Virus record (IMG/VR): IMGVR_UViG_2880406838_000004
Strand: one strand, 5' to 3'
Length of the DNA stretch: 57,859 bases
From: a virus
Taxonomy: Duplodnaviria; Heunggongvirae; Uroviricota; Caudoviricetes
Positions 24,001 to 27,000 of the stretch are shown piece by piece. The position numbers were made by a program. The number at the start of each line of letters is the position of its first letter. Position 1 is the first letter of the stretch.

Positions 24001-27000
24001 CGTCCCGGGCATGAAGTTGTCGAAGGAAAAATGCGACCAGGTTAACGCCATTGAGCGTGATAAGGCGCTGGCATGGGTGGAGAAAAACATCAAAGTGCCG
24101 CTGACCGAACCCCAGAAAGCGGGGATCGCGTCATTCTGTCCGTACAACATTGGTCCCGGTAAGTGTTTCCCGTCGACGTTTTACAGACGAATTAATGCAG
24201 GTGATCGAAAAGGTGCCTGCGAAGCGATTCGCTGGTGGATTAAGGACGGTGGCAGGGACTGCCGTATTCGCTCAAATAACTGTTACGGTCAGGTATCCCG
24301 TCGTGACCAGGAGAGCGCGCTGGCGTGCTGGGGAATCGACAGATAAGCAGAATATTTTGCTGAAAAATGAGGTTTGCTTACATGGATTGATAACACGAAA
24401 TCCTGCAAATTGGCAAAATGTAAGTGAATAAAGTCAAAACAGTTGTTTAACACTCAGGCACCGTAATGATGCCTTTGTCATTTCTGCGCATCTCACGCGC
24501 ATCTCACAACACAGAACCTTTCAGGATGACCCTTGAGGATACCGGTTTGGCTGTCGGTGCCTTTCTGTGGGCTGGATTCCTGTGAGACAAGGTTCATCAC
24601 TAAAAGGAAATAACCGATGAATATGATGGCCGTGCCGTTTCACGGCAACTCTCTTTATGTAGTTAACCATAATGGCGAACCATACGTTCCCATGAAACCT
24701 GTCGTTGCGGGGATGGGGCTGGCCTGGCAATCACAGTTGGCTAAGTTAAGACAGCGTTTTGCGTCAACTATAACGGAAATCGTTATGGTTGCTGAGGATG
24801 GGAAACAACGCAATATGGTGTCCATGCCACTTCGAAAACTTGCCGGCTGGCTACAAACCATTAATCCCAACAAAGTAAAACCCGAAATCCGCGATAAGGT
24901 CATCCGGTATCAGGAAGAGTGCGACGATGTTCTTTACGAGTACTGGACGAAGGGTTTTGTCGTTAATCCCCGTAAAATGAGCGTGATGGAAGAACTCAAC
25001 CAGGCTTGTGCTGACATGAAACGGGATAAAAACATTGCCAGTGTGTTTGCTACCGGGCTGAATGAGTGGAAACAGGTTAAAGCCGCGCATGTATCAAAAA
25101 TCCGTACGCTGGTAAATGAAGCGAATATGCTGATTGATTTTGTCCTGGCTGATACAGGCAAAGGGAAAATAACAAAGGCGGATTGATGGGGTGGCTAATG
25201 ATATCAGATAAACTCATAACGCTGGTGAAGAGCCTCTGTGTACTTGTCGGCATTTCATTTTTAGTCATGCTGGTTGCCATTTTCTTTTCCACCGCCTGGC
25301 GAGTCCTGACGTTATCGGGACTGGTGGGGTGAAAGAGAGATGAACCGTGTTCTGTGTGTGGTGATTATTGTCCTGGCGGTTGGCTGTGGTGCGCTGTGGC
25401 TGGCAACAAACCATTACCGTGACAACGCGCTCACCTACAAAGCGCAGCGCGATAAAAAAGCCAGAGAGCTGGAACAGGCGAATGCCACCATTACTGACAT
25501 GCAGGTGCGCCAGCGTGATGTTGCTGCGCTCGATGCAAAATACTCGAGGGAGTTAGCCGATGCGAGAGCTGAAAATGAAACTCTGCGTGCTGATGTTGCC
25601 GCTGGTCGTAAGCGCCTGCGGATCAACGCCACCTGCTCCGGTACCGTGCGTGAAGCCACCGGCACCTCCGGCGTGGATAATGCAACCGGCCCCCGACTGG
25701 CAGACACCGCTGAACGGGATTATTTCATCCTCAGAGAACGGTTGATGACAATGCAGAAGCAGCTGGAAGGGGCACAGGACTATATCCGCACTCAGTGCCT
25801 GAACTAAGTTTTGCTGATGCGCCGTATCGTCGCCGTATTCCTGCATTAACAGAGACCGCAGCCCGACAGGGAGACTCCTCTGCGAGAGTGTGCGGGGATA
25901 ATCAAAAACGATACACACCGGGGTTTACCGCGTAAACGGAGCGCGGCGTTCTCCCCTCATGGTCGCCCGTCCGGTGCGATGGTGGAAGAAACTGGAATCT
26001 GTTCAATAAAAAAACTGCCGTGTTGGAGTCACAGCAGTAATGTACTGATTGGGTAGAAGATTATTATTGTTATGCTTTATTTTTATTCTATATGGCTGAT
26101 TATTTCAATTCGGAATTAATACAGCTAATGTCTGTGAGTTTTTATAAATTCAGCAATATAAAGAAATAGTTATATGAACAGCCATCGCAGAGCATACTGT
26201 GTATCATTCTTTTTTATAGTCAACTGACGGGCATATTTTATGTCTGCTGCCAGCTCCCGGCGGCAAGATTCAATGACCCACGCAGAAAAATTTTCTGAAC
26301 CTTTCTGGTCAAGAGCGATGTTAATTTGTTCAATCATCTGGTTTGGAAATCGGATGTTGCGGGTTGTTGTTCTGCGGGGCCGGTTTTTCGATGACATTTT
26401 CTTTCCTCTGGTGACAAGCTATATGGCGAGGATTTTACATGGCTGTGCTTCGTACGTTACCGGGCAGAATCAAAACTCTGAACACCCGGCGGGTGAATAT
26501 TCTGAAGGGTGAACAGCGTCGTGTCAGTGGCAGTGCACGTGTTTCCCTCAAGCGTCATATCTGGCTCAGGGATGCCGGGCAGTGCTGTCACTGTGGTCGT
26601 GTGGTTGACCTCTGTGACAGTGAACTCGATCACCGAATTGCACTTCAGTTCGGTGGTGGTAATGAGGAGACGAATCTCTGGACCCTCTGTACTGAATGCC
26701 ATCGACAAAAGTCTGCTCGTGAAGCGGCGGGTGGTATGCCGGACCCGACGCTGCCGGAGGTGTCCGGAGGTCATGGCAGGGCAGACGATATCATCGGACT
26801 GTGACCCGCCCCGGGGGGGATCATCCGGCGAAAAAAAACGATCGCCCCGGACACCGCCCCCCGTCTCATGCAGAGAAAAAATTCCTGTTTCAGGCCAGTT
26901 AACATGTTAACTGGCTGCCCGGGCATTTTTTCGGTTTTTATCTTTATTATTCAGTTTGTTGTGCGAAAAAAATGTTAACTGGCTTTTTCAGCAAATGTTA

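Follow-up and report, generated by a model that had tools for sequence, protein, structure and literature searches.

A predicted structured RNA leader and its exchangeable gene slot in the late region of a lambdoid prophage of the Stx-phage type

The DNA analysed here, called the window in the following, is the whole stretch of 57,859 nucleotides of the IMG/VR record IMGVR_UViG_2880406838_000004. It is a lambdoid prophage of the Shiga toxin (Stx) phage type and corresponds to chromosomal sequence of E. coli E2863 and related strains. In its late region, a gene labeled ant lies between the endolysin gene R and the spanin genes Rz/Rz1, and the sequence directly upstream of this gene is a structured RNA, apparently undescribed, which is well supported by covariation and has no Rfam family. 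By comparison of loci it was shown that this leader and the following gene form a cassette across Enterobacterales prophages, in which sequence and base pairing of the leader are conserved while the gene is swapped. Judged by its domains and its place, the lysis-cassette ant is one allele of a late-operon slot, which holds rha/ORF201 in P22, and not an Ant of the immI type. Altogether, it is considered probable that the region is a standard late region with a leader-gated slot for accessory regulators, and that the leftward DUF3950 gene behind Rz is not a repressor of ant.

Structure and covariation of the leader

The covariance model of the leader (R1) showed a single match in the window, at 24469-24624 with 147 bits and an E-value of 7e-52. 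A search of 24300-26500 against Rfam 15, at the gathering threshold as well as at E-values up to 5, gave no match to the leader or to the spacer between Rz and the DUF3950 gene; three chance matches to small nucleolar RNAs were seen in this range, all of them away from the leader. The papers on small RNAs (sRNAs) of enterohaemorrhagic E. coli report no EcOnc or Pas sRNA at the position of the leader.

The helices H1, H2 and H4 (Table 1) were predicted with RNAalifold, and base pairs were counted on 28 diverse leaders, with slid partners and 500 shuffles as controls. In these counts, 98% of the cells were paired compared to 35-44% with slid partners, none of the 500 shuffles reached the observed pairing value, and 8 pairs were changed on both sides. 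An independent set of 31 R1 matches in species-representative genomes, all of them from Enterobacterales ranging from Citrobacter to Photorhabdus and Arsenophonus, showed 97.9% paired cells and 10 pairs with changes on both sides. The long-range helix H2 was found in at least eight Watson-Crick-compatible versions (CACAGA/UCUGUG, CUCAGA/UCUGAG, CACCGA/UCGGUG, CGUCGA/UCGACG, CAUCGA/UCGAUG, CCAAGA/UCUUGG, CCCAGA/UCUGGG and CAUAGA/UCUAUG), whose positions are 50-60 nt apart. Coordinated variants were also observed for the candidate closing stem, where CCUUG/CAAGG is replaced by CCUUUG/CAAAGG, CCCUUG/CAAGGG or UCUCAG/CUGAGG. The single-stranded segments of the leader (UUCCUGUG.G.CAAGGUUCAU) are almost invariant.

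For the spacer between R and ant, the first-pass annotation had pointed out a short direct repeat, GCGCATCTCAC x2. This repeat is located exactly at 24486-24507 with a unit of 11 nt, but instead of being an operator-like repeat it is part of the conserved hairpin H1. Its first unit comprises the 5' arm and the loop (GCGC-ATCTCAC), followed by the 3' arm (GCGC), while the next seven bases copy the loop in the window's lineage only. In place of the loop-copy repeat, other lineages have GCGCTTCACACGCGCGAC, GCGCACCGCAGCGCACA or TGCGTACCGCAACGCA, accompanied by compensated changes in the stem; the GCGC/GCGC stem covaries from CG to UA and from GC to AU. Like the window, which has a terminator-like hairpin directly 5' of the leader, other leader loci show a GC hairpin and a T-run at the equivalent place (CGGGGCTTTTTTAT).

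The structure of minimum free energy (MFE) of the window leader is a long stem, in which CCUUU (24517-21) pairs with AAAGG (24603-07) of the Shine-Dalgarno (SD) sequence, followed by GAUGA/UCAUC, CCUUG (24531-35)/CAAGG (24588-92) and AGGA/UCCU. The CCUUG/CAAGG helix and H2 together make a pseudoknot, and a model combining them pairs in 96% of the cells. The leader may adopt one pseudoknotted fold or may switch between two folds. The outer stem of CCUUU/AAAGG and GAUGA/UCAUC pairs in all leader types, in different registers and with partial compensation, and is regarded as a candidate. Three further helices of the RNAalifold prediction (H3, H5 and H6) are doubtful: they never covary, and they clash with the better-supported CCUUG/CAAGG stem.

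A version of the leader has been recovered from P22. A study from 2026 describes P22F, an sRNA of 89 nt with its function given as unknown, whose 3' end lies 6 nt from the start of rha (ORF201) (PMC13397905). P22F aligns with 24525-24611 of the window and is the P22 version of the leader, which explains the origin of this sRNA. Both have H4, the CCUUUG/CAAAGG stem and the UUCCUGUG..GGUUCAU block in common, and in both the gene starts about 20 nt after GGUUCAU.

The slot behind the leader and the other regulator genes

When 24347-25339 was used as the query of a sensitive search, the matches to Salmonella P22-like phages (85-89% identity) were confined to its nt 139-275, corresponding to 24485-24621 of the window. 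In these phages, the stretch of 137 nt lies between Rz (gp15) and a KilA-N gene. In the case of phage TL-2011c, which has no ant, the common sequence is limited to the ~94 nt that follow R. When IMG/VR was scanned twice with exact patterns, 240 loci were obtained, 211 of them with enough flank for the analysis of offsets. In these 211 loci, the next gene starts about 20 nt after the GGTTCAT motif, an offset that is fixed whatever the gene, and the slot genes belong to at least 20 N-terminal types. Six Pfam architectures were determined for the slot: KilA-N+ORF11CD3, Phage_pRha+ORF11CD3, P22_AR_N+ORF11CD3, KilA-N+P63C, Rha alone and HNH_3+AP2. While ORF11CD3 is common to KilA-N, Rha and ant alleles, the KilA-N+P63C and HNH+AP2 alleles are without it.

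The leader and its gene are located after Rz in about 120 loci with other alleles, while the 19-20 ant alleles are without exception found between R and Rz. Since all ant alleles precede Rz and the others follow it, the ant within the lysis cassette is a positional variant of the general late slot, moved as a unit of the leader, ant and the open reading frame (ORF) of 48 aa behind it. This ORF accompanies the ant allele in 19 of 19 loci; its ATG overlaps the stop codon of ant (TGATG), and 7 nt separate its end from Rz. The ant-less TL-2011c has a different small transmembrane (TM) ORF immediately before Rz (locus L007, about 2700-2800), and such lysis cassettes may regularly include a small, so far unstudied membrane protein between R and Rz.

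In an Arsenophonus endosymbiont (locus L256, NZ_OUND01000009.1), two leaders were found in tandem on one strand, at 3150-3305 and 3545-3698, each with a slot gene of its own: a truncated KilA-N gene followed by a Rha-type gene. The second, divergent leader (30.9 bits) has CAUAGA/UCUAUG as H2 and UCUCAG/CUGAGG as closing stem. The tandem arrangement shows that duplication of the slot is possible.

The ant-like ORF that had been proposed between the signal-anchor-release (SAR) endolysin and Rz/Rz1 was confirmed. The N-terminal half of the protein is P22_AR_N (Pfam, E 1.4e-45) and its C-terminus is ORF11CD3 (E 5.5e-6; 27 bits at a cut-off of 25), while Pfam gave no P22_AR_C domain, unlike in P22 Ant. 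The protein matches phrog_524 and bears the Ant label in BP-4795 (ORF49). More than 2500 homologues were found, and the best 120 of them, which belong to E. coli, Salmonella, Photorhabdus, Xenorhabdus, Serratia, Hamiltonella, Arsenophonus and Proteus, all show the same architecture of 187-190 aa. A sequence search of the PDB gave no relative with a solved structure. The gene is flanked by R upstream and Rz downstream, without adjoining divergent genes of the Arc/Mnt type, and no sequence of at least 10 nt is common to the R-ant, Rz-HNH and immI spacers.

Like the window ant, rha (ORF201) of P22 encodes an ORF11CD3 C-terminus and is part of the late operon, adjacent to the lysis genes. It differs by its Phage_pRha N-domain, compared to P22_AR_N in the window, and by the P22-type slot after Rz, compared to ant between R and Rz. 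The Rha phenotype, as reportedly described by Henthorn and Friedman in 1995, is an inhibited phage growth in IHF-deficient hosts.

ORF49 of BP-4795, the 933W-type 'ant' and d_ant of phi24B are the same gene at the same place between R and Rz, with the same neighbours and ~99% DNA identity from S to HNH. In phi24B, the gene is called d_ant, 'downstream of R', and its antirepressor function is only presumed from sequence (PMC4426718, PMC10732415). The published function, an antirepressor and target of the 24B_1 RNA, is thus a sequence-based proposal, and the phi24B d_ant papers make no mention of an upstream RNA leader. A single shared domain is the basis of the label 'antirepressor' for this gene, a label that is carried uncritically through hundreds of Stx-phage records, from where it feeds models of Stx-phage induction such as that of 24B_1 and d_ant. 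The gene is better viewed as a late-slot allele of the rha/kilA kind.

A different situation was found for the second ant of the window, which belongs to a module between the tail genes L (40837-41535) and K (43162-). This module (41552-43146) shows the layout and the domains of P22 immI, i.e. Arc-family genes on both sides of a spacer as well as P22_AR_N and P22_AR_C, although its ant is frameshifted. In contrast, the lysis-cassette gene has only the N-domain in common with the immI Ant of P22; it has a different C-domain, no flanking Arc/Mnt genes, no operator-like spacer and a different RNA element upstream. As claimed before, the N-domains of the two ant genes are paralogous, and the alignment, run as proposed, showed 64% identity over 115 aa (E 6e-57). 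The 'near-identical DNA' described for 24889-24955 and 42508-42575 was not found to this extent: the best stretch comprises 55 identical positions of 62 nt (89%), and the quoted ranges are 6 nt out of register. The DNA of the N-domains is 68% identical as a whole and 48% identical at the third positions of codons; the two are thus old paralogues under purifying selection and not products of a recent conversion.

The assumption that the second ant is an intact, working antirepressor is contradicted by a 1-bp deletion, which truncates the gene. One A is missing after 42795 (TGTCACTTG to TGTCCTTG), causing a stop at residue 228 of 334. The remaining ORF (42143-42829) matches P22_AR_N with an E-value of 4.2e-40, and P22_AR_C (E 1e-29) is out of frame, while the tail Ant of relatives comprises 334 aa with both domains; RefSeq annotates the truncated gene as an N-terminal-domain protein. 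Among 280 complete E. coli genomes carrying the locus, the deletion allele is 100% identical in 45, including E2863, E2855, 95NR1, 95JB1 and RM9131, and the other 235 have another allele. Because the allele is identical in 45 genomes, the truncation is real and inherited and does not originate from a sequencing error. In the spacer of the module (41897-41979), repeated GGTGCCA, TGGCA and TGGCACC look like operators of the immI type, kept despite the truncated ant.

The leftward gene after Rz, proposed as an Arc-like ribbon-helix-helix (RHH) gene, is indeed an ORF of 75 aa with an SD sequence (GAGGA, AGAGGAAAGAAAATG), divergent from the HNH gene with a spacer of 41 bp. However, its product does not belong to the Pfam Arc family but to DUF3950 (YlcI-YnfO), with scores above the curated cut-offs for PF13132 (62.6 bits, cut-off 25) and for NF041551, the YlcI_YnfO_N model of NCBIfam (39.2 bits, cut-off 30; E 5e-10). 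The Pfam profiles Arc, CopG and RHH gave no match to the protein even at E-values up to 10, and a PDB sequence search found nothing. The AlphaFold model shows an extended N-terminus and two helices, and the best Foldseek matches of this model are RHH-type proteins, which are weak with E-values above 1. The bona fide Arc-family protein of the window matches the YlcI_YnfO_N model (E 6e-6), while hhalign of the DUF3950 protein with the two Arc-family proteins of the window gave a weak alignment of shallow depth (Neff 1.6). Based on these models, a DNA-binding protein with an RHH fold is plausible. YlcI (DLP12) and YnfO (Qin) of K-12 belong to the same DUF3950 family, the members of which differ in their C-terminal tails, and their genes are found at the same lysis/packaging junction of cryptic lambdoid prophages.

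On the minus strand, the DUF3950 gene is followed by its own terminator-like hairpin (26038-26014), and a weak promoter-like site for it lies within HNH; the gene is located 1 kb from ant, beyond Rz. Since it also co-occurs with KilA-N and Rha alleles, it is not a dedicated partner of ant. A very AT-rich stretch of ~130 bp (26040-26170) extends from its stop codon to the hairpin, with no ORF and no Rfam match there. In TL-2011c, a leftward bor gene follows Rz.

Proposed role of the leader and alternative explanations

A promoter scan of 23000-27200 detected no promoter-like site on the plus strand, and the total counts were not above those of shuffles. Presumably without a promoter of its own, ant would be made from the Q-dependent, antiterminated late transcript. 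The leader would act in cis on translation, or on the processing and stability of the late mRNA, using two partly exclusive pairing schemes, one of which would cover the SD sequence in the window's lineage. It would also accumulate as a small RNA, represented by P22F in P22. The ant protein would be a late accessory regulator built on an N-domain of the DNA-binding type, while the DUF3950 protein would be a small RHH-like regulator with a transcript of its own, encoded where the lysis and packaging genes meet. Occurring in Stx phages, P22 and many Enterobacterales prophages, the leader gives a concrete handle on the expression of puzzling late accessory genes.

A number of observations weigh against this leader-gated slot. 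For the single sequence, the MFE calculation prefers the alternative long stem over the covariation-supported fold, and the leader is thermodynamically unexceptional, with single-sequence folding z-scores of -0.5 and -1.1. Sequestering of the SD sequence is possible in the window's lineage but not in P22-type leaders, where the SD sequence lies 3' of the stem. Furthermore, P22F could be a decay intermediate, and an antirepressor activity of the lysis-cassette protein is possible. The late operon is interrupted by an IS3-family element (21390-22603) that lies 0.6 kb before the holin gene, and late expression may therefore be impaired in this prophage. A more far-reaching interpretation is possible but rather doubtful, namely that the leader represents a new class of pseudoknotted riboregulators (either a switch that senses a ligand or a protein, or an RNA that processes itself) which gates a hypervariable late slot and releases a stable sRNA (P22F). 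If this were true, a single regulated system would comprise the so far unexplained late genes of the Rha, KilA-N and Ant-N types.

Instead of acting in cis, the leader could have a trans-acting sRNA, the counterpart of P22F, as its main product; this sRNA would be set free from the late transcript and regulate host or phage mRNAs, with the downstream gene being incidental. The recovery of P22F as a discrete species of 89 nt with hundreds to thousands of reads, both in infected cells and in vesicles (PMC13397905), would be in line with such a product, as would the near-invariant single-stranded segments and the fact that late regions of prophages are known sources of sRNAs, with AgvB and STnc100 in the same window. 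Nevertheless, the fixed distance of ~20 nt between the leader and the start codon, whatever the gene, points to a role in cis, and the 5' end reported for P22F falls within the structure, as would be expected if it were a decay product. A mainly trans-acting sRNA is judged unlikely.

Even less probable is the explanation closest to the first-pass annotation, according to which both ant genes encode working antirepressors held by local RHH proteins, with the DUF3950 protein or the R-ant repeat forming an immI-like switch in the lysis cassette. The P22_AR_N domain is present in both proteins, PHROGs and public records label both as Ant, the authors of the phi24B work assume that d_ant is an antirepressor (PMC4426718), and the tail module is truly organized like immI, a leftward gene of the Arc family being followed by a spacer rich in palindromes and then by arc-like and ant genes. 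The lysis-cassette ant, however, lacks P22_AR_C, a promoter-like site and operator-like sequence in common with other spacers; the GCGCATCTCAC repeat is a covarying RNA hairpin and not an operator; the slot elsewhere holds KilA-N, Rha and HNH genes; and the DUF3950 gene, 1 kb off beyond Rz, co-occurs with other slot alleles, while the tail ant is truncated. The earlier inventory of genes stands: P22_AR_N occurs in two genes, the tail region has two RHH genes of the Arc family, and one RHH-like gene follows Rz. In contrast, the control of two working antirepressors by three repressors is unsupported: the tail ant is truncated, the lysis ant has only the N-domain and neither promoter nor operator, the slot is shared with other genes, and DUF3950 is not specific for ant.

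An absence of any RNA function in the stretch upstream of ant can be regarded as highly improbable. In this case, the conservation would have to result from a small membrane-peptide gene (39 aa, 24466-24585) or from a junction of mosaic recombination. This ORF is present, is auto-annotated in Salmonella phage UPF_BP1 and matches phrog_16173; near-identical boundary sequences do occur among lambdoid phages; and the single-sequence folding z-scores of the leader are weak. As a coding sequence, however, the ORF was rejected: it collapses to MGL*/MSL* in P22-type leaders, and indels of 1-2 nt break it within the window's own type. Moreover, covariation with at least eight Watson-Crick combinations was observed in two independently collected sets, while slid partners were only 34-44% paired.

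Late region and other elements of the prophage

The region 23200-26900 shows 99% identity to many Stx1a- and Stx2a-converting phages and to BP-4795. Every gene from the holin gene to terS/terL is already annotated in BP-4795 (ORF46-55), Stx2a_WGPS2 and RefSeq; ORF48-53 of BP-4795 are annotated as R, ant, hypothetical, Rz, DUF3950 and HNH, Rz/Rz1 are annotated as spanins in WGPS2, and the RefSeq annotation of the matching region of E. coli E2863 agrees. The stretch is the distal portion of a standard late region of the Stx-phage type, and its gene arrangement is ordinary. The genes are real and located where they had been placed before; as they are already annotated in Stx phages, nothing is new at the gene level. 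The N-terminus of R, as read from the translation, is weakly hydrophobic, rich in Gly/Ala and SAR-like (MNAKIRYGLSAAVLALIGAGASAP), and the translation shows the spacing E35-x8-D44-x5-T50. All features are summarized in Table 1.

Table 1. Features of the late region, the RNA leader and the tail-region module (positions in the window)
Feature	Position	Strand	Evidence or remark
S gene, class II (S21-like) holin	23207-23413		annotation
YdfR/DUF1327 gene	23418-23762		
Endolysin R, SAR type (phage 21 R-like)	23813-24346	+	Pfam Phage_lysozyme, E 1.9e-24
R-ant spacer			270 bp
Terminator-like hairpin	24457-24483	+	GGCA-N9-TGCC then TTTGTCATTT; directly 5' of leader; read from sequence
Conserved structured RNA leader (predicted)	24485-24616	+	covariance model R1
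Helix H1, GC hairpin	24485-89 / 24497-24501	+	RNAalifold
Helix H2, long-range	24510-15 / 24564-69	+	RNAalifold
Candidate closing stem	24531-39 / 24578-81 plus 24588-92	+	
Hairpin H4	24541-46 / 24553-58	+	RNAalifold
SD sequence of ant (AAGGA)	24604-08	+	
'ant' (d_ant), 189 aa	24617-25186	+	P22_AR_N + ORF11CD3
48-aa single-TM ORF	25186-25332	+	RefSeq WP_000539792.1 'hypothetical protein'; phrog_4906, E 5e-30
Rz, i-spanin	25340-25807	+	Pfam Phage_lysis, E 4.9e-50
Rz1, o-spanin, embedded in Rz	25560-25745	+	lipobox LVVSAC, Pro-rich tail
Rz-DUF3950 spacer			360 bp
Intrinsic-terminator-like hairpin 3' of DUF3950 gene	26014-26038	-	9-bp stem then TTTTTTTATTG
DUF3950 / YlcI-YnfO gene, 75 aa	26170-26397	-	Pfam DUF3950, E 3e-17
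HNH endonuclease, head of packaging module	26439-26804	+	Pfam HNH, E 1.4e-6; annotation
Terminase genes	terS 27094, terL 27654		
Arc-family RHH gene, Mnt position	41552-41896	-	Pfam Arc, E 1.8e-20; Arc family DNA-binding protein in WGPS8
Spacer, 83 bp	41897-41979		GGTGCCA/TGGCACC-type palindromes
Arc-like repressor gene, 57 aa, directly 5' of tail ant	41980-42153	+	Pfam Arc, E 1.4e-4, 22.1 bits (cut-off 20.4); annotation
Tail-region ant, frameshifted	42143-43146	+	P22_AR_N + P22_AR_C; stop 42829, C-domain out of frame 42796-43146

Three copies of one IS3-family element were found in the prophage (8948-10161, 13358-14571 and 21390-22603), and each of them contains the ALIL frameshift pseudoknot of Rfam (121 bits). 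In the late operon, the third copy is inserted on the opposite strand, with the esterase gene (19539-21350) on one side and the holin gene on the other, and may make the prophage late-defective. The interval 18840-19451, located 3' of two tRNA genes, corresponds to the place of stx in related Stx phages and shows no ORF of the size of Stx. The prophage appears to be a relative of Stx1a phages that lacks stx. The same part of the window comprises STnc100 (19182-19390, 175 bits) and, on the minus strand, AgvB (19392-19451), the latter with 56.6 bits barely above the gathering score. In addition, a sok antitoxin RNA at 13111-13286 (119.8 bits) implies a module of the hok/sok type, and the early region of the prophage contains a DicF RNA at 4528-4579 (76.7 bits).

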